Shown piece after piece: positions 6,815-15,752 of a stretch of DNA of 15,752 nucleotides. The position numbers and the translations under genes were made by a program. The first letter of the stretch is position 1, and every line of letters starts with the position of its first letter. The notes below the pieces were generated by a model. It was not told where the DNA came from. It did no database searches and saw only the letters and a list, made by a program, of their open reading frames with translations. The stretch covers positions 1 to 15,752 of the forward strand of contig JAEOTE010000047.1 in assembly GCA_016839945.1 (NCBI GenBank), in the 5' to 3' direction. Origin of the DNA: Candidatus Heimdallarchaeota archaeon. Lineage in GTDB: Archaea; Asgardarchaeota; Heimdallarchaeia; Heimdallarchaeales; Heimdallarchaeaceae.

Positions 6815-8749
6815 TTACTCTGAATAAACATCAGAAATATACTTCAGAGTATTTGAATAGAAAGGGTATTTTTCTTTTTCAGAAATATCTTTGGTAATAA
6901 GAAGTTCAGATAGATTTTGAGTCATTTGTAGTATAATAGTTGGAGCTGTTGTTTCTATTAGTGGTCGTCCTCTTATTAACATTCCTTGAAGAGAAGTATT
7001 GTATTTTGTACAAACATTTGCTATTGTTGTACTCTCTTCTTTCAACTTAATTGGAGATTCTATTTTTTCACCTATCCACTTCCAAGAACCTTCTTGTGTT
7101 ATACTTATCAACCAAACTAAAACAGCGAAACCATAAAGGGATGAGCTACTTCCATATAAGATATATTTGTTAATAAAATCGAAAAGTTGAGCAAGAGTAT
7201 TGAGGTTTGCTTCATCAGTTTCAAAAAGTTGAGTAGATAAAATGAAGTCTTTCTGAAAATCACTTAAGATTGTTTTATATTTTTCTTCTATTTTCAAGAA
7301 ATTATCTCTTTCATCCTTCATTTCTTCATAATCTTTGTTGATTGTTTCCATTTTTTCAATAATTTTATCGAGCGGAGTTTTTTTCTCAGTTCGAAGTCTT
7401 AGAGATTTAATGTATTTATCTAGCTTTTCATGTATTTCTTTCTGTTTTGTTTCCAAATCCTCATCAGTCATTTCTATTTCTTCTTCTGTTGCGTCTTTCC
7501 CTTGCATTGCGAGATTAGTTTGTTTCTGCCACTTCAATCCTTCTTTGATTATTGTAGGAGATAAAATTTTCTCAATAGATTTGGCAAGTAAATACTTTCT
7601 CTCTTTCAGGACTTTACTTTTCGAGCTAACAATGGAAAGGTAGAAGGAAAACGCATTTGGGATTATATTGTATGGATCAAGTTGTCTATTTCCTTGCAAG
7701 GCTTGAAAACTTAAATCTTTGTCAACCCATTCAGTTAATCCTCCTGCTATCATCGAAAATGGAGGATTGAATGTTGTAAAGAGAGGAATAGATGTGTAAA
7801 TGTTTGCCATAGAAATAAGGATATCATGATATCCGAAACTCAATGTTTTTTTGTATTTCTTAAAAATTAATTGTTTATCTTCAAACAAGAACTGCATAGA
7901 AAGATAGTGAAGAATATGCTTGTTTAAACTAGCTTGAGATAAAGTATCAGCTTCAAAATCCTCTCCTTGTTGAAGAGCATTTAATATTGCAGCATTGGAT
8001 AGAACCTCTGCTCTCTCAGCATCCTCTGAAATATCTTTAACAGCTTCTTTGTCTTCAGGATACATTTTTTCTAAAACTTGATGAATCCAGTGTACAATAT
8101 AGTTGAAAAGATAAGGTGCTTTTCCAATTATTTTTCTCCATGTAAACCATTTCTCGATTCTATTACTCACTAATTCAGAAATTTTGTTTAGGTCTTCATC
8201 TTTCACTTCTCTTGTTGAATACCTCATAGGAAAGATAGCTATTGGTTTTTTATCCTTAAAAACCAAATCTTCAACATCTCTAATTATTGTACTAAATACT
8301 AGTTCTAAGTCTAGTAAACAATATCTAGATATTACCTTGGATTCCTTATGATAATCATAATGAAATGCTGAATTTTTAAGGAAGTTAGTGCTAAAAAATT
8401 GAGTAAAAAAAGGTTCAAAGAAACTCTTCCCTTCTTCATCTAATTCTTCAAATATTCCATCCTTCTTGGATATCTCTTTGATATAATAATCAATCAAAAA
8501 TGATCCAAAAGCAGTTTTTTCTAAATCAGGATTATTCAAGTAATATTCTACTGCTTGAATAGATTCTTTAGTATTTTTCTTTATTTTCTTCAAATCAATA
8601 TCTTCTGGTAATTCAATCAATTGTTTGTTTCTATCTCTAGGAACTAAATGCTTTCCTTCTTTTTCAAAACCTAATACTTTTCTTTTTTCTATTAATCCAA
8701 AAGTAATTGATGAATTTTGCAAAGTTCCTTTATACAAAACTACGTCCAT
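6815..8749 (-). CDS. Hypothetical protein (644 aa, soluble, largely helical, with a central coiled-coil)
   Basis: Long ORF filling the gap, with SD-like GAGGA upstream of the ATG and a terminator tract downstream. It has an E/K-rich heptad segment at about residues 420-500. I recognised no family motif. Confidence 0.8.
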   Translation of the reverse strand: MDVVLYKGTLQNSSITFGLIEKRKVLGFEKEGKHLVPRDRNKQLIELPEDIDLKKIKKNTKESIQAVEYYLNNPDLEKTAFGSFLIDYYIKEISKKDGIFEELDEEGKSFFEPFFTQFFSTNFLKNSAFHYDYHKESKVISRYCLLDLELVFSTIIRDVEDLVFKDKKPIAIFPMRYSTREVKDEDLNKISELVSNRIEKWFTWRKIIGKAPYLFNYIVHWIHQVLEKMYPEDKEAVKDISEDAERAEVLSNAAILNALQQGEDFEADTLSQASLNKHILHYLSMQFLFEDKQLIFKKYKKTLSFGYHDILISMANIYTSIPLFTTFNPPFSMIAGGLTEWVDKDLSFQALQGNRQLDPYNIIPNAFSFYLSIVSSKSKVLKERKYLLAKSIEKILSPTIIKEGLKWQKQTNLAMQGKDATEEEIEMTDEDLETKQKEIHEKLDKYIKSLRLRTEKKTPLDKIIEKMETINKDYEEMKDERDNFLKIEEKYKTILSDFQKDFILSTQLFETDEANLNTLAQLFDFINKYILYGSSSSLYGFAVLVWLISITQEGSWKWIGEKIESPIKLKEESTTIANVCTKYNTSLQGMLIRGRPLIETTAPTIILQMTQNLSELLITKDISEKEKYPFYSNTLKYISDVYSE

Positions 8750-9385: not shown

Positions 9386-10690
9386 ATGTTCATGATACTT
9401 CGTAATTATTTATCAAATAAAGGACAAAATATTGATGAAAAAATAGATCTTTCAGCTGGTACTTTAGCATGGAACCTTAGAGCCAAGAAGAGATCTAGAG
9501 AATTTGAAGGTTTTATTGATGCAACAATAGGGAGTGGGTGTGATAATGAAGGATCACTTCTAACAATGCCTACTTTAGTTGAAGAATTCAATAACTTATC
9601 AGGAAACCAATTATTCAGATATTCCCATTTACGTGGTATGTCTGATTTTGTTCATGCTTGGAAAAAAGACACAATGAAAAGTTTTCCTAATCATCTTGTG
9701 GAAAAGACTGATCAATATTCAACTTTGCCCATAACATCCATTGGTATAACTGGAGGATTGTCAATTGTAGGTGAAGCATTTTTTAATCCTGGCGAAGCTT
9801 TACTCGTTCCAAATTCAAGATGGGGAAACGTTGATAATGTTTTTCTTAAAAATCAACAATTACGAGGTATCAATTATAACTTATTAGATGAGAATGGGAA
9901 CCTTAATTTCCTTGATTTATCTGCTCAAATAAAAAGAGCATCAATCGAAGAGGAGAAACTCGGAATATACCTCAATTTTCCAAATAATCCATCTGGAATA
10001 AGTCCAACGTTTGAGCAATTAAAGCATCTACAAGAAACCCTTTCAGAGCTATCAAAACCAACAATTGTTATTCTGGATGATGCTTATGAAGGATTTGTGT
10101 ATGAAGAAAACACAATTAATCATTCACTCTTTCCCCATCTAGTAGGATTGAATGAAAACGTAATAGTAGCTAAAGTTGATGGAGCATCCAAAAGGTACTG
10201 TGCCTATGGAGCAAGACTAGGACTTGTAACTGTTGGATTTGGTTCTGAAGTTGAGGATCAAGAAAAATTTCAAGTTAGAGAATTATTAGCTAAAATTGCT
10301 AGATCAACTACTTCTTCTCCCCCTAGAGGAATCCAAGAAGCTCTACTAAACATTTTTACAGATGAAAAGAAAAATGAACAAATTGAAAAAGAGAAAAAAC
10401 ATGTTTTTGAGGTTCTTAAAAATAGATATTACAAAATTAAGAAACTATCTGAAGAAAAAGAAAGTAAAATACTCTTGCCTGCTAAATTTAATTCCGGTTT
10501 CTTCAGTTATTATCTAATAAAAACTCATCAATCAGCAGTAGAAATTGGATCCAAACTTTTAGAACGAGGTTTAGGAACAGTTCCATTCGTTAATAACGAG
10601 AATGGATTAAATGGCATAAGAGTTGCATATTGCTCAATTGCTGACGAAGATATTTCTAAAGCCATAGATATCTTATATTCTACTTATTAA
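9386..10690 (+). CDS. PLP-dependent aminotransferase class I/II
   Basis: Motifs DATIG, GITGGL, WGN, NFPNNPSG, DDAYEG, KVDGASK...GARLG (PLP lysine), NSGFF and IRVAY. The start could alternatively be the ATG at 9392. Confidence 0.92.
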   Translation: MFMILRNYLSNKGQNIDEKIDLSAGTLAWNLRAKKRSREFEGFIDATIGSGCDNEGSLLTMPTLVEEFNNLSGNQLFRYSHLRGMSDFVHAWKKDTMKSFPNHLVEKTDQYSTLPITSIGITGGLSIVGEAFFNPGEALLVPNSRWGNVDNVFLKNQQLRGINYNLLDENGNLNFLDLSAQIKRASIEEEKLGIYLNFPNNPSGISPTFEQLKHLQETLSELSKPTIVILDDAYEGFVYEENTINHSLFPHLVGLNENVIVAKVDGASKRYCAYGARLGLVTVGFGSEVEDQEKFQVRELLAKIARSTTSSPPRGIQEALLNIFTDEKKNEQIEKEKKHVFEVLKNRYYKIKKLSEEKESKILLPAKFNSGFFSYYLIKTHQSAVEIGSKLLERGLGTVPFVNNENGLNGIRVAYCSIADEDISKAIDILYSTY

Positions 10691-10710
10691 AAAAGAAAAA
10701 GAAAAAAAAG
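10689..10710 (-). terminator. Oligo-T terminator for the plsY-like gene (convergent junction)
   Basis: Plus strand AAAAAAGAAAAAGAAAAAAAAG lies between the convergent stops at 10690 and 10713. Confidence 0.55.
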
Positions 10711-10712
10711 GA

Positions 10713-11447
10713 TTATTTAAGAGCTTCATCAGCTTTTCCTTTGAATATTTTCCAAAGTTTCATTCTTGATGCTTCACCGCTTCTTATCTTGTCAAAGTTA
10801 GCTTTTTGTCTAGTTATTACTACAATTGTTGTTGCAAACATTGCAATCATTGTTACTAAACCAAACGTGGGATCCGTTATTGTATTTGGATCTGCTACCA
10901 TTCCCATTGGAGATAAGAACCAAGGCCACCAGAAGAATATAACTCCCATGACAATGAAACTGACAATATAAGTAATAGAGCTATAGAAGCAAACCATACT
11001 TAATCCAAAGAATGAAACAAGCCATAAAGGTAAGAATACAGGATTGAAAAATATCATTGATCCTAATGTTGAAGCTACACCTCTACCTGCGTGGCTAAGT
11101 AACCATATACACCAGTTATGTCCAAGAATTGCAGCTGGTCCTGCAAAAGTAATAACCCATGCATCACTGTGTCCAACTGTATAAGAGATAATAACAGCTA
11201 TCCACATTGCAAAAAATCCTTTCAGTATATCCAATATAGCAACAACAATTCCTGCAGTATAAGCTATGCTATTTGGCTTCTCTTTGTGTTGAAAAGCTCT
11301 AACAACATTTCTTCCACCAACATTTTTAGATCCTATAGTACGTATATCTAATCCTCCTAAGAAGATTTTAACAGTAATAAAAGCGAATGGAATGGAACCT
11401 AGAAAATAACCAATTGCTGTTGCCCAAATGACATCAACTGTTATCAT
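10713..11447 (-). CDS. plsY: Glycerol-3-phosphate acyltransferase PlsY-family protein (divergent)
   Basis: Motifs GYFLGSIP, DIRTIGSKNVGGRNVVR (motif 1), DILKG, AAILGHNW, AGRGVAS (motif 2) and RQKANFDKIRSGE (motif 3-like); multi-TM protein. Confidence 0.85.
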   Translation of the reverse strand: MITVDVIWATAIGYFLGSIPFAFITVKIFLGGLDIRTIGSKNVGGRNVVRAFQHKEKPNSIAYTAGIVVAILDILKGFFAMWIAVIISYTVGHSDAWVITFAGPAAILGHNWCIWLLSHAGRGVASTLGSMIFFNPVFLPLWLVSFFGLSMVCFYSSITYIVSFIVMGVIFFWWPWFLSPMGMVADPNTITDPTFGLVTMIAMFATTIVVITRQKANFDKIRSGEASRMKLWKIFKGKADEALK

Positions 11448-11468
11448 AACTGCAATTTTTTCAAGCTT

Positions 11469-11477
11469 CTTTAAAAA
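11469..11477 (-). promoter_or_regulatory. TATA-like box (leaderless layout) for plsY
   Basis: Minus strand TTTTTAAAG lies 22-30 nt upstream of the ATG at 11447, preceded by AAAG. Confidence 0.55.
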
Positions 11478-11585
11478 CTTTGTTCAGTCTTTATTAGTGC
11501 TAAGATTAACAAAAAATGCATTAAAAATATTATTGATTTCATAATGCTAAGTATTGCTTAAGGCATAATTATTTATAGTATTATC

Positions 11586-11600
11586 AAAAAGAAAAAAGAG
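11586..11600 (-). terminator. Oligo-T terminator after the recombinase gene
   Basis: Plus strand AAAAAGAAAAAAGAG lies immediately beyond the stop at 11604. Confidence 0.5.
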
Positions 11601-11603
11601 ATT

Positions 11604-12353
11604 TTAGCTGTAGAAGTCGTCTTCCTCTCTAATCTCAATATCTCCTTCTTTAATCACAGGTTCTACTTGATAGACTATTTTACCTTTCCAGAAATACTCA
11701 CCAGTTCTGTAAATAGGATTTTTCCTAAGGTAAGCTAAAGTGCTTCTAGGGATATCATACTTATTACTGATTGTTGACATAGTGACATTATCTTCAAACA
11801 TCTGGAAAATTTCAACTAGTTTTGGTCTTACTTCTTCATCAACAATAAGTTTACCATCTTCGATTTTGTAACCGTAAGGAGGACGGCTCATTATTTTTTG
11901 GTCTTGAATCCTTCTTTTTATACCGTACATGCGTTTAGCTCTGTACTTTTTCAACTCTTCTTCTCCAAGAAGATCATAGATTCTAGTAACCAGCATTTCA
12001 TCAGATTCTTCTGTTGCTCTGATTTCTACACCCATTGTTCTAAGAAGTACCGATGAATATCCAAGCATGTCAACTTCTCTGGAGATCCTATCTCTTGTTT
12101 GTACCCAAACTTCTCTTACTGGATTTTCTGGATGGTCTTTTAGAGTTTCAGAAATGAAATTCATCATCTCTCTAAAACCTGGTCTTTCTTCCACGTGACT
12201 ATCGCCTGAAACATCTTCATCAACAAAAGTTTGCATAATATGTCTATAGCCTATTGATTGTATTTTCTTATTTATAACATCTACTTGAGTGTCTTTTCCC
12301 GTTTCTTGATCTGCGGTACTAACTCTAACATAAGTAACTACATTAATATGCAT
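11604..12353 (-). CDS. Serine recombinase (resolvase catalytic domain plus compact recombinase DNA-binding domain)
   Basis: YVRVST (catalytic Ser), DEDVSG, ERPGF, TRDRISR, a long helix E, PPYGY and NPIY..G...EPVI. There is no C-terminal zinc-ribbon or coiled-coil region. Confidence 0.9.
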   Translation of the reverse strand: MHINVVTYVRVSTADQETGKDTQVDVINKKIQSIGYRHIMQTFVDEDVSGDSHVEERPGFREMMNFISETLKDHPENPVREVWVQTRDRISREVDMLGYSSVLLRTMGVEIRATEESDEMLVTRIYDLLGEEELKKYRAKRMYGIKRRIQDQKIMSRPPYGYKIEDGKLIVDEEVRPKLVEIFQMFEDNVTMSTISNKYDIPRSTLAYLRKNPIYRTGEYFWKGKIVYQVEPVIKEGDIEIREEDDFYS

Positions 12354-12497: not shown

Positions 12498-13289
12498 ATG
12501 AATATCGTAATTACTGGAAGCTCACAAGGGATAGGTTTTCAGCTAGCTAAAGAATTCTTAAATCATGGGGATAAAGTAGTTATTTCCTCTAGTAATGAAG
12601 ATAGAATAAATAAAGCAATAGAGGATTTAAAATCGGAATTTCCAGAAGAAAATGTGAATGGAATTGTATGCAATGTTACAAATCCAGACAATATTAGAAC
12701 TTTAGTGGATTTTTCTTTAGATAAGTTAGGATTTATTGATATTTGGATAAATAATGCAGGAACTACCGGATTTGAATATGATAAACACATCAATATCTCA
12801 GATAAAGCGATTGAAACAGCTGTAAAAACAAATATGTTAGGAACCTTATTTGGTTCTCGAGAAGCTCTCAAAGTATTGTTAAAACAAGGAAAAGGAAAAA
12901 TTATCAATTTAGGTGGATATGGTACTAATGGAATGGCTTCTCCAAACTTAGCTTCCTATGGAGCAACTAAGAGCTCAATTCCTCAACTTACAAAAACTCT
13001 AATCAAAGAAACAAAGAACAAAAAAATTGGTGTCCATATACTCCTCCCAGGGATGGTTTTAACTGATCTTCTACTGAAAAACGCTGATGCAAGAGCTAAA
13101 AAGTTTTTCAACATAACTGCAGAAAAACCTGAGACAATAGCTAAGAAACTTGTACCAAAAATCAGAGAGATAAAAGGAACTGGGAAGAAAATCAAATTCA
13201 ATAGTTCGTTAAAATTTTTCTGGATAATGATGACAGCATGGAGACGTAAAAATCGTTTCTTTGATGATGAAGGAAATCCTGTAGATTAG
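12498..13289 (+). CDS. Short-chain dehydrogenase/reductase (classical SDR, NOL/NYC1-like subfamily)
   Basis: TGSSQGIG Rossmann motif, IDIWINNAG, catalytic YGATK and PGMVLTDLL. Its stop overlaps the convergent GT-C gene's stop (TTAG, 13286-13289). Confidence 0.92.
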   Translation: MNIVITGSSQGIGFQLAKEFLNHGDKVVISSSNEDRINKAIEDLKSEFPEENVNGIVCNVTNPDNIRTLVDFSLDKLGFIDIWINNAGTTGFEYDKHINISDKAIETAVKTNMLGTLFGSREALKVLLKQGKGKIINLGGYGTNGMASPNLASYGATKSSIPQLTKTLIKETKNKKIGVHILLPGMVLTDLLLKNADARAKKFFNITAEKPETIAKKLVPKIREIKGTGKKIKFNSSLKFFWIMMTAWRRKNRFFDDEGNPVD

Positions 13290-14938
13290 AATTCTTCTAT
13301 TTCTTTTTTCTTACTATTTCTTCTGAAAACTCTTCTATAGAATCTTACAATTCTCAAATATGCAGATTTAAAGAAAAATTTGATATCTTCCTTCAATATT
13401 CGATAATTCTCTTTTTTAATCAAACTCTTGTAAAAATCTAATGGTATAAAGAATGAGATAAAGAATGTTAACCCTAATAATATCGTTGGGTGCATGAATC
13501 TGATTGTTATCATTATGAACCAATTTATTCCATAAACTGCAACCATACAAACTAAGAAAGAGAAGCACAACGCAACAAAGTAGAGAGTTTCTTTTGATAA
13601 AGAGAAAAACAAAACATCTTCAGATTCACTTGCATCATTATTCTGGATGATTATTCCTCTCTTTTTATCAATGCTTTTCTTTAGCTTTATTAGTCCTCGA
13701 TTAACAAACAGAAGAGAGAATAGTATCAAGAATGGTGATAGGAATATATCATAATACTTGAAAATACCTCTTGCCATGAAAACGTGGATTATAAGTAATA
13801 ACCATGTTAAATAGCTGATAAATACAGTCTCATCTTTACTTATTTTTTGAGCATTAAAATGACCTACGAGTAAAGCTACTCCATAGAAGAGGATAAATGG
13901 TATCATTGGAATATTGATGTACATATAAACATTAGCTAAGAATTTTGATCCTAGATGAAGAATGGAATGTGCTAAAGTAACTCCATGCCTAATCCCTTCT
14001 TCCGTCAATGTAACATACCATAAAGATCGACCCGCAGCAAAAATTCTTCCAACATACAAATGAGGTGTTAAGAATATCCACGGTATAGCTAATAACAGAT
14101 TCGAGAAAAGAAAAGGTCTTAGGAATTTTTTATACGCAAATGAAAGATCATGATTCTTCCAGAGAATTGAAAATAAAGGAATCAAGAAGAAAAGAGGTAT
14201 TTGTTTCGATAAGAATGCTATTGTAAGAAAATAAGCTGATAGTCTATATTTTTCTCGAAGAAAGAAAATTAACATTACTAATGTAAAAAAAGTCATTTGT
14301 GGTCCATTCAGATGAACCGAATCTATGTACAATAAATTAACTGGCAGGAAGATGTAAGCAAATGCTGCAATTAATCCAATTATGTGTCTTCTAATTTTTT
14401 TATCTTTGAAATCTTTTAAACATAGAATCAGAATGTAAATCATAACTACTGATAAAGCATCATAAGTTAATGCAGTCCATTTTACTGATTTCTGGAGTAA
14501 AAACTCTCTAGCTAGATTTGGTTCAAAAGCACTTACGAACAATGATGTAAAATATAAACTATAGATAAAAATAGGACCATACAAGTAATAATCCAATTCT
14601 CCTTCAGTTCGAGCATAAGGATTCCATCCATCATAACGAAAAGCTTCAAGAAAGCTATCATAATAATAAATCGAGTCTTGGTAAATCTCAAAATACCATA
14701 TAACTGGTCCTTTTTCAGTCATATGAGTATAGCTAAAAGACCATTGTACTTCATTAAATATTCTTTCTCCAATAATGTCTTTCAGATACATAGCTAAAGA
14801 AAATAATGCTATAGAGATAATGCATATCAATAAAATTTCAAAATTGATATATCTTCTATGATCTCTAATAATAAAGCCAAAATCAATTCTCTTTTCTTTG
14901 CGTAATGTTGACATGGAGATGTTTGAAGTTATTATCAC
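13286..14938 (-). CDS. GT-C fold polytopic membrane glycosyltransferase (GT87/PIG-M-like mannosyltransferase type)
   Basis: First TM is followed by a luminal loop with an acidic motif (YQDSIYYY), NPYAR and YLYGPIF; KQIPLFFLIP follows; more than ten TM helices. The annotated GTG start at 14938 may be wrong: the ATG at 14914 has a TATA-like CTTAAAA about 28-35 nt upstream. Confidence 0.72.
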   Translation of the reverse strand: MIITSNISMSTLRKEKRIDFGFIIRDHRRYINFEILLICIISIALFSLAMYLKDIIGERIFNEVQWSFSYTHMTEKGPVIWYFEIYQDSIYYYDSFLEAFRYDGWNPYARTEGELDYYLYGPIFIYSLYFTSLFVSAFEPNLAREFLLQKSVKWTALTYDALSVVMIYILILCLKDFKDKKIRRHIIGLIAAFAYIFLPVNLLYIDSVHLNGPQMTFFTLVMLIFFLREKYRLSAYFLTIAFLSKQIPLFFLIPLFSILWKNHDLSFAYKKFLRPFLFSNLLLAIPWIFLTPHLYVGRIFAAGRSLWYVTLTEEGIRHGVTLAHSILHLGSKFLANVYMYINIPMIPFILFYGVALLVGHFNAQKISKDETVFISYLTWLLLIIHVFMARGIFKYYDIFLSPFLILFSLLFVNRGLIKLKKSIDKKRGIIIQNNDASESEDVLFFSLSKETLYFVALCFSFLVCMVAVYGINWFIMITIRFMHPTILLGLTFFISFFIPLDFYKSLIKKENYRILKEDIKFFFKSAYLRIVRFYRRVFRRNSKKKEIEEF

Positions 14939-15096: not shown

Positions 15097-15752
15097 ATGA
15101 AAGAAGAAGTCGACTTGAATGTACTCCTTGATAATCTACCTTTTGGAGTATCTGTTCAGACAATAGATAGAAAAATCATTTATGAAAATGATAAAATGAA
15201 AGAATTAGTTGGGTCTTATCTAAACAGACAATGTTACAACCGTTGGCATTATCTAGAAAATAGAGGAAAAGAACCTTGTCCCGACTGTCCAGCTGCAGTT
15301 GGTTTTAAAGATTCAGAATTTCATAAAATTTTCAGAAAAACTGTCAGCGAAGGTGGAGAAGATATTTATGTTGAGATACAATTTGTTCCAATTCCAAATG
15401 AAGAAGGTGAATTGGAAAAATATATCGAAATAATATCAGAAGTTGATCTTGAAGATAAAGCGAGAGTTTTGTCACAACAACCTCTGGATTTAGTTTTGAA
15501 TCAAGTCCAAGTTTCTATCATTCAGTTTGGAGATTTAGGAGGGGAGATAATTACAACAGATAATCTCAATTTTGTTAAAGAAGACGAGCTTGAGGATTTT
15601 CTAGTTAAAGTTACTGTCTATATCTTTAGTGGATTAATTCAAGGTTTTGATGACCAAGAAGGTCTTTTTGGTCCTTTACCAGTTCTAGATAAGACTAATT
15701 ATGAGATGCTTGCACATGTGTTCAAAATAGAGAATAAAAATGCTACTGATCC
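15097..15752 (+). CDS. PAS-domain protein with a C-terminal uDENN/longin-like domain (3'-truncated by the window; not in the ORF track)
   Basis: My translation, open to the window end: MKEEVDLNVLLDNLPFGVSVQTIDRKIIYENDKMKELVGSYLNRQCYNRWHYLENRGKEPCPDCP...YVEIQFVPIPNEEGELEKYIEIISEV (PAS pattern), then VQVSIIQFGDLGGEII...YIFSGLIQG...GLFGPLPV...MLAHVFKIENKNATD. Confidence 0.8.
   Translation, partial: MKEEVDLNVLLDNLPFGVSVQTIDRKIIYENDKMKELVGSYLNRQCYNRWHYLENRGKEPCPDCPAAVGFKDSEFHKIFRKTVSEGGEDIYVEIQFVPIPNEEGELEKYIEIISEVDLEDKARVLSQQPLDLVLNQVQVSIIQFGDLGGEIITTDNLNFVKEDELEDFLVKVTVYIFSGLIQGFDDQEGLFGPLPVLDKTNYEMLAHVFKIENKNATD

Follow-up and report, generated by a model that had tools for sequence, protein, structure and literature searches.

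The question of how the eukaryotic membrane replaced the archaeal one turns on whether Asgard archaea are able to produce fatty-acyl ester glycerolipids. Homologues of the bacterial glycerolipid acyltransferases PlsY and PlsC have been known in Asgard archaea since 2017-2019 (from metagenomes: Villanueva 2017, as cited in PMC6431249, Coleman 2019, PMC6431249, and Manoharan 2019, PMC6737245; see also PMC9385802 and PMC13400652), and reviews leave their function open. We analyzed a 15,752-nucleotide stretch of DNA (hereafter the window), which is the whole contig JAEOTE010000047.1 of a Candidatus Heimdallarchaeota archaeon, and in particular a plsY paralogue that occupies positions 10713-11447 on the minus strand (hereafter the type A gene). 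Like the homologues already reported, it is a bacterial-type glycerolipid acyltransferase gene in an Asgard genome. It belongs to a subfamily, here called Q-type and composed of types A and B, in which a conserved active-site histidine is replaced by glutamine, and which in most related genomes stands beside a canonical, His-type copy (type C). The PlsY complement of Heimdallarchaeia is thus a diversified family, made of a canonical copy and of paralogues with a rebuilt acceptor pocket, rather than a single borrowed bacterial enzyme. In a literature search of incomplete coverage, we encountered no description of this Gln-type subfamily or of its pattern of replacements (T41R/S142Y/H177Q), nor of a link to the fatty-acid carriers and kinases DegV and FakA in Asgard archaea or of an inverse distribution of PlsC.

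We used PlsY of Aquifex aeolicus (aaPlsY) as the reference for residue numbering. In this enzyme, S35, R45, K104 and N180 clamp the phosphate of the acceptor, glycerol-3-phosphate (G3P), while S142 and H177 are ligands of its 2-OH (PMC5700162). The phosphate of the donor, acyl-phosphate, is held by H92 and by the backbone of residues 104-107 (the 'phosphate hole'), and T41 is a ligand of the acyl carbonyl (PMC5700162). His177, whose pKa was calculated at 4.4, lies 5.4 Å from the reacting 1-OH of G3P; according to the authors of the structures, catalysis is substrate-assisted and involves no protein base (PMC5700162). The activity left in aaPlsY mutants is 6.5% for H177A, 1% for H177Q, 4.8% for T41A and 25% for K104R, and E189A is fully active (PMC5700162).

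The type A gene is an open reading frame of 244 residues with an ATG start, and both its integrity and its kinship with PlsY, as claimed in a preliminary description of the window, were borne out. Its protein matches Pfam PF02660 (G3P_acyltransf) with 109.8 bits (cut-off 24.1, E 1.9e-31) over profile positions 1-163 of 164, and no other Pfam family is matched, including PF01553 (PlsC). Its score on the TIGR00023 equivalog, glycerol-3-phosphate 1-O-acyltransferase, is 113.8 and stays below the threshold of 137.2. The sole relative of solved structure found by sequence is aaPlsY (5xj5, E 7.5e-14). An AlphaFold model built on an alignment of 85 sequences (pLDDT 94.6, pTM 0.90) matches only the five PlsY chains in Foldseek (5xj5-5xj8), with a target-normalised TM of 0.78-0.80, and the next match has an E of about 1. 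This comparison with the crystal structures was made at the level of the fold, and the correspondence of residues was taken from the sequence alignment. The protein hence shares with aaPlsY (5XJ5-5XJ9) the Pfam family, the seven-helix fold (TM 0.80) and the size of a monomer of an integral membrane protein. Unlike the bacterial enzyme, it is only about 25-30% identical in sequence, is about 45 residues longer, has no PlsX partner and is found in an archaeal host.

Both phosphate-binding sites of PlsY are retained in the type A protein, and the residues around the reacting ends of the substrates are replaced. In motif 1 (residues 39-50, GSKNVGGRNVVR; 11298-11333, minus strand as for all codons of this gene), placed by alignment to 5xj5 and column counts, S40, N42 and R50 correspond to S35, N37 and R45, while G45 and R46 take the places of A40 and T41. 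The codon of R46 is AGA (11310-11312), and Arg occupies this position throughout types A and B. Motif 2 (residues 108-126, LGHNWCIWLLSHAGRGVAS; 11070-11126) keeps H110, which corresponds to H92, and the G-[KR]-G-V-A loop, with A120 in place of G102. The codon of Y160 (10968-10970) falls at the position of S142, a column that we read from an ungapped HMMER block and from a multiple alignment (A1). In motif 3 (residues 213-226, RQKANFDKIRSGEA; 10770-10811), Q214, with the codon CAA read directly at 10806-10808, stands for H177, N217 for N180 and K220 for R183, and E225 and A226 occupy the canonical x-E189 positions, so that the final Glu is shifted by one. The acceptor phosphate clamp, as aligned with aaPlsY, is therefore complete (S40, R50, R122 and N217), and the phosphate hole is retained, with an invariant H110 and a loop that reads A-G-R-G-V-A here and GG[KR]GVA in the clade. 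The carbonyl ligand T41 and both ligands of the 2-OH, S142 and H177, are not conserved.

The motif strings of the preliminary description (GSKNVGGRN at residues 39-47, HAGRGVAS at 119-126 and RQKANFDKIRSGEA at 213-226) are exact, and the Gln reported in motif 3 does sit at the position of His177. Two active-site changes that travel with it, T41 to R and S142 to Y, had been overlooked. The glycine-rich phosphate loop, said to be altered, indeed differs from the canonical one; however, the change of G102 to Ala (HAGRG) is limited to the type A protein and its three nearest relatives, and the K104 position, R122 here, is a conservative K or R across the clade. Motif 2 is thus not rewritten throughout the subfamily. 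The shift of the terminal Glu is also real, but neither this nor the K/R difference at 104 weighs much, given the full activity of E189A and the residual activity of K104R in aaPlsY. The His of motif 3 had moreover been taken for the catalytic base, which the published structures and mutants of aaPlsY rule out: His177 binds the 2-OH and catalysis is assisted by the substrate (PMC5700162). A Gln at this position therefore speaks for an altered pose of the acceptor and not for altered chemistry.

Because both phosphate sites are retained, an acyl-phosphate donor and a phosphorylated acceptor of the glycerol type have most likely been kept. Both ligands of the 2-OH and the ligand of the acyl carbonyl were replaced together and then fixed, which suggests that the acceptor is held in another pose or is another molecule. 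An unchanged canonical reaction appears unlikely, since the corresponding single mutants of aaPlsY are poor enzymes (H177Q and T41A). The best explanation for these data, to which we would give about an even chance as a whole, is that the product of the type A gene is a functional membrane acyltransferase of seven helices with the PlsY fold. The enzyme would still depend on acyl-phosphate, and its acceptor would be bound differently or be a different molecule, as the residue pattern suggests.

To see how far this pattern extends, we surveyed the residues of approximately 250 full-length homologues. Type A comprises 37 close relatives of the window protein, 52-87% identical, and type B comprises eight sequences that are around 40% identical to type A, one of which is a second copy in this genome (contig C175). 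All type A and type B sequences have in common the pattern S-x-N-x-G-G-R-N..R / H / GG[KR]G / Q..N..K..G-E-A. Gln occupies position 177 in all of them and in the Q-type sequences of two other families (f2 and f3), and the positions of H92, the glycine loop, S35, N37, N42, R45 and N180 are invariant in the Q-type clade. At the position of S142, the Q-type block of alignment A1 shows Tyr in 29 of its 30 rows, and the one row that departs from this (P0126) retains His177; Ser is found in 52 of the 55 rows outside the block. We built a maximum-likelihood tree from 110 sequences. Its 27 Gln rows all fall together (SH-aLRT 84), in a group that includes type A (SH-aLRT 99), type B (SH-aLRT 100) and two further Gln-type sequences from neighbouring families. 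The replacement of His by Gln thus defines a clade, a point raised in the preliminary description, and a single change is sufficient to explain it. The next neighbours of the Gln group in the tree are paralogues from another family that have Arg41 and a variable residue at position 177.

The Q-type subfamily is narrow. Types A and B are confined to Heimdallarchaeaceae; two neighbouring families have Gln-type sequences that are weaker relatives, and a third has none. Among the 1.8 billion representative proteins of a sequence library, only four fall below 1e-30, and the subfamily forms few clusters at 50% identity, all of which are Heimdallarchaeial as far as they were traced. We conclude that the Q-type subfamily is limited to Heimdallarchaeia at the order level. 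The type A gene is under strong purifying selection: comparison with the nearest genome gives a dN/dS of 0.021 (dS 0.49), and the ratio is 0.08 in another close pair and between 0.08 and 0.2 in the other pairs.

We then compared the occurrence of PF02660 and PF01553 over 83 Heimdallarchaeia genomes grouped by family. PF02660 is found in 72 of them. Heimdallarchaeaceae genomes usually host three copies, with types A and B scoring around 110 bits each and type C around 175-180 bits. Types A and C share the family, the host lineage and the length class; unlike type A, type C keeps the canonical residues H177, N180, R183, G-x-E189 and K104, and it groups with bacterial PlsY in the 110-sequence tree. 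The presence of Q-type copies beside a canonical His-type copy in most relatives is the classic setting of neofunctionalisation. The proposal that the type A gene is a neofunctionalised plsY therefore gains from this arrangement and from the strong purifying selection, while the part of it that read the loss of His as a different chemistry finds no support. In another Heimdallarchaeial family (f7), each genome has 4-13 PlsY copies, with a highly varied position 177 (Y, L, M, N). In genomes from outside Heimdallarchaeia, PF02660 is mostly found in open frames of about 405 amino acids, often three or four in tandem (for instance G204:C6:56828-62954 and G149:C106:5555-8769 in another Asgard family, f14). 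This suggests that PlsY is fused or extended there, a difference in architecture that would confound a phylum-wide comparison with PlsC.

Type C was found neither in the assembly studied here nor in that of its closest relative. In this genome the corresponding region is cut by a contig end: the synteny shared with another member of the genus reaches to about 450 bp from where contig C95 stops and continues within contig C99. As an assembly gap between the two is possible, a true absence of type C from this genome is not established.

The distribution of PlsC-family genes is the inverse of that of the paralogues. PF01553 is absent from all 31 Heimdallarchaeaceae genomes, including two closed ones, from the one genome of family f2 and from the 12 genomes of the many-copy family f7, for a total of 0 out of 44. 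These PF01553-free families are those with 2-13 PlsY paralogues. Where a family has zero, one or two PlsY copies, PF01553 is instead present in 11 of 12, 22 of 22, 2 of 2 and 3 of 3 genomes (38 out of 39 together). This inverse distribution is the basis for the proposal that the Q-type paralogues supply a second acylation, which is our preferred specific reading but one that we still consider tentative and unlikely. The subfamily, born by duplication beside canonical PlsY, would transfer an acyl group from acyl-phosphate to a phosphorylated acceptor of the glycerol type. This acceptor would be the free 2-OH of a lyso-glycerophosphate, either 1-acyl-glycerol phosphate or the prenyl ether GGGP, and the Q-type enzymes would thus perform the second acylation in the lineages without a member of the PlsC family. 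The resemblance to PlsC would lie in this proposed role, suggested by the complementary gene distribution; unlike the Q-type proteins, the PlsC family (PF01553) has an unrelated fold, an HX4D motif and a thioester donor.

An acyl-phosphate donor would have to come from a source other than PlsX. Neither PlsX (PF02504) nor the PlsC family (PF01553) has a match in this 88%-complete genome, which agrees with the earlier report that the window holds neither plsX nor plsC and extends it. The absence of plsX can be explained by an expanded system of the fatty-acid-kinase type. The genome encodes 15 members of the DegV/FakB family of carriers (for instance C62:59430-60293, C105:19487-20317 and C82:68658-70451), one of which scores 249.6 on TIGR00762; one DegV gene is divergent from egsA. 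It also encodes two stand-alone Dak2 proteins of 213 and 227 amino acids (C73:23042-23683 and C109:5490-6173; L012:1381-2022 and L013:1408-2091), for which the N-terminal kinase domain of FakA/YloV gives scores of 233 and 244 bits and DhaL gives 38 and 30 bits. DhaK was not found in this genome, and no partner with the central or C-terminal domain of FakA was identified there. In other Heimdallarchaeial families, Dak2 open frames of about 330 amino acids are found instead.

Throughout the class, the number of DegV copies follows that of PlsY copies: this family has 9-18 DegV genes, the family with 4-13 PlsY copies has 5-23, and the others have 0-5. In one genus of patchy distribution, PlsY is present in 11, DegV in 10 and Dak2 in 9 of 22 genomes, and DegV and Dak2 occur solely in the PlsY-positive ones. 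The family with 4-13 copies has in addition a same-strand string of Dak2, DegV and PlsY genes, the latter being the canonical His-type (G072:C6:63849-66403; also G071:C106:10103-12633, G078:C192:6823-9353 and G079:C88:3084-5640). This co-occurrence and the gene string support a PlsY system fed by a fatty-acid kinase in Heimdallarchaeia. The Heimdallarchaeial PlsY family is therefore tied by gene distribution to a large system of fatty-acid carriers and kinases, and runs inverse to PlsC-family genes.

Both enantiomers of the glycerol phosphate backbone can be made. The G1P dehydrogenase EgsA is a bona fide member of its family (435.9 bits, cut-off 413; C62:58227-59294), and GGGPS is also encoded. 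The C-domain of GpsA is absent here and GpsA is absent from all 83 Heimdallarchaeia genomes; the matches to PF01210, considered as candidates for GpsA, are generic Rossmann matches without the specific C-domain. The genome has, however, a bona fide glycerol kinase, GlpK (698.8 bits, cut-off 590; C82:56355-57830), through which sn-glycerol-3-phosphate can be made despite the missing GpsA. We thus rejected the argument that no G3P is available and that the acceptor must for this reason be glycerol-1-phosphate (G1P). Three DegV genes share the contig of GlpK and lie within approximately 11-16 kb of it. The outcome of the genome-wide search proposed at the outset is hence that plsX, plsC and gpsA were not found and that the G1P dehydrogenase was.

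If these elements act together, the donor would be supplied by the two FakA-N-like kinases and the 15 DegV/FakB carriers rather than by PlsX. Fatty acids would come from a polyketide/fatty-acid megasynthase cluster or from the environment, be carried by DegV proteins and be phosphorylated by the FakA-like kinases. Canonical PlsY would then acylate position 1, and the Q-type paralogues would acylate the 2-OH of the lyso-intermediate. With acyl-phosphate serving both positions and Q-type enzymes replacing PlsC, Heimdallarchaeaceae may make diacyl or mixed prenyl-ether/acyl-ester glycerophosphates; taken in full, we regard this route as a speculative one, with a clearly minor share of the probability. 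Should it be correct, it would add a new enzyme activity to the PlsY fold and would give the archaea closest to eukaryotes a concrete pathway to ester lipids.

Several observations weigh against an altered acceptor and a second acylation. The complementarity of PlsC and PlsY paralogues rests on roughly two or three independent lineages, and family f3 has PlsC-family genes together with a Q-type copy. Types A and B share one active-site pattern, so that two enzymes for a single step would need a separate explanation. The gene neighbourhoods, with an aminotransferase and a GNAT protein for type A and a phosphomannomutase and a methyltransferase for type B, give no link to lipids. As for the donor, the N-domain of Staphylococcus aureus FakA is inactive without the central domain (PMC9136124), and the FakA-like proteins of Heimdallarchaeaceae are made of the N-domain only. 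Finally, the three active-site changes could offset one another, so that the ordinary reaction is preserved.

This last point is the core of the alternative that survives best, which we judge possible but on balance improbable. The type A protein would be an ordinary glycerol-phosphate 1-acyltransferase isozyme, in which T41R, S142Y and H177Q compensate for each other and lysophosphatidic acid is formed from acyl-phosphate and G3P, G1P or both; perhaps it prefers the archaeal G1P backbone or particular acyl chains. The intact phosphate clamp and phosphate hole agree with this, as does the finding that bacterial PlsY takes both G1P and G3P and so has a tolerant pocket (PMC13400652). G1P and G3P can both be made in this genome, through EgsA and GlpK, and if type C is truly missing from it, some paralogue must perform the first acylation. 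However, three residues at the reacting ends of the substrates have been changed and frozen in two paralogues, with a canonical copy alongside in most relatives. A preference for acyl chains would be expected to alter the hydrophobic groove and not the polar pocket, and a dedicated G1P enzyme seems needless if canonical PlsY is not stereospecific. An isozyme of this kind would also leave the missing PlsC-family genes unexplained.

A protein with the PlsY fold that does not transfer acyl groups from acyl-phosphate is a distinctly less probable alternative. Such a protein might serve in binding or regulation, be a pseudoenzyme, or be an enzyme that uses another phosphorylated donor or an acceptor other than a lipid, such as a sugar phosphate. 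Consistent with this are the score below the TIGR00023 equivalog cut-off, the near loss of activity that H177Q alone causes in aaPlsY, and the divergent pairing of type B with a phosphomannomutase. In addition, the presence of up to 13 paralogues per genome with a varied position 177 suggests a radiation towards diverse substrates. The invariance of H92, the glycine loop, S35, N37, N42, R45 and N180 is nevertheless hard to explain unless substrates that bear phosphate occupy both sites, and both the strong selection and a copy number that tracks the DegV carriers also oppose this view.

The view that the gene is bacterial and its contig mis-binned or a contaminant, which may come to mind because PlsY is typically bacterial and the bin has 186 contigs and an estimated contamination of 2.35%, is rejected for practical purposes and has a negligible probability, given the orthologues in 29 of the 30 family genomes, two closed ones included, the shared gene order, the even GC content and the Heimdallarchaeial origin of the subfamily clusters.

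The data on the host confirm an active-site variant that belongs to the archaeal genome, and an Asgard host as the preliminary description had supposed. The window is part of a 3.0-Mb genome, and the named proteins closest to its own come from Heimdallarchaeaceae and from Ca. Heimdallarchaeum aukensis; the type A orthologues in the family are 51-67% identical, and the closed genomes among them are each a single contig. The order of the genes for an aminotransferase, a DinB-like protein, a 644-aa protein and an oxidoreductase is common to other Heimdallarchaeaceae contigs. The assembly has no SSU rRNA, and an Rfam scan of the window gave no match.

Around the type A gene, a T-rich run directly behind the stop codon (10691-10712, minus strand) is a possible archaeal oligo-T terminator. 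The 156-nucleotide spacer upstream (11448-11603, minus strand) is AT-rich and has a TATA-like TTTTTAAA about 30 nucleotides before the ATG, and both elements are predicted from the letters of the window. Downstream lies a class I/II aminotransferase assigned by Pfam (9386-10690, plus strand), convergent with plsY, a pairing that recurs on three contigs of relatives. Directly upstream is a serine recombinase of the resolvase type (11604-12353, minus strand; Pfam/NCBIfam). In relatives, an Eis-like GNAT gene and others separate plsY from a similar resolvase, which suggests that their direct contact here results from a local deletion or rearrangement. The conserved neighbours of type B are the divergently paired phosphomannomutase and a methyltransferase.

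The megasynthase cluster comprises a biotin-protein ligase, an acetyl-CoA carboxylase carboxyltransferase and giant KS-AT-ACP-KR megasynthases that resemble PUFA/polyketide synthases (G000:C29:12759-19537 in this genome; L014:8768-16729 in Ca. H. aukensis, CP084166.1). It abuts the type A gene in Ca. H. aukensis only and lies on another contig in this genome. Gene neighbourhood was therefore dropped as a clue to function, as this adjacency is limited to one genome and the conserved partners of types A and B are uninformative.

Three open reading frames of the window have no Pfam or NCBIfam match: 6815-8749 (minus strand, 644 aa), which is syntenic in relatives, 13286-14938 (minus strand, 550 aa) and 15097-15750 (plus strand, at least 218 aa). 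In the closest relative, a small open reading frame also lies between plsY and the resolvase, and genes similar to larB, larC and larE are found beyond the resolvase. A gene of 487 aa without a Pfam match (L017:8455-9918, plus strand) lies 82 bp upstream of the type A plsY of one relative, in the same orientation.

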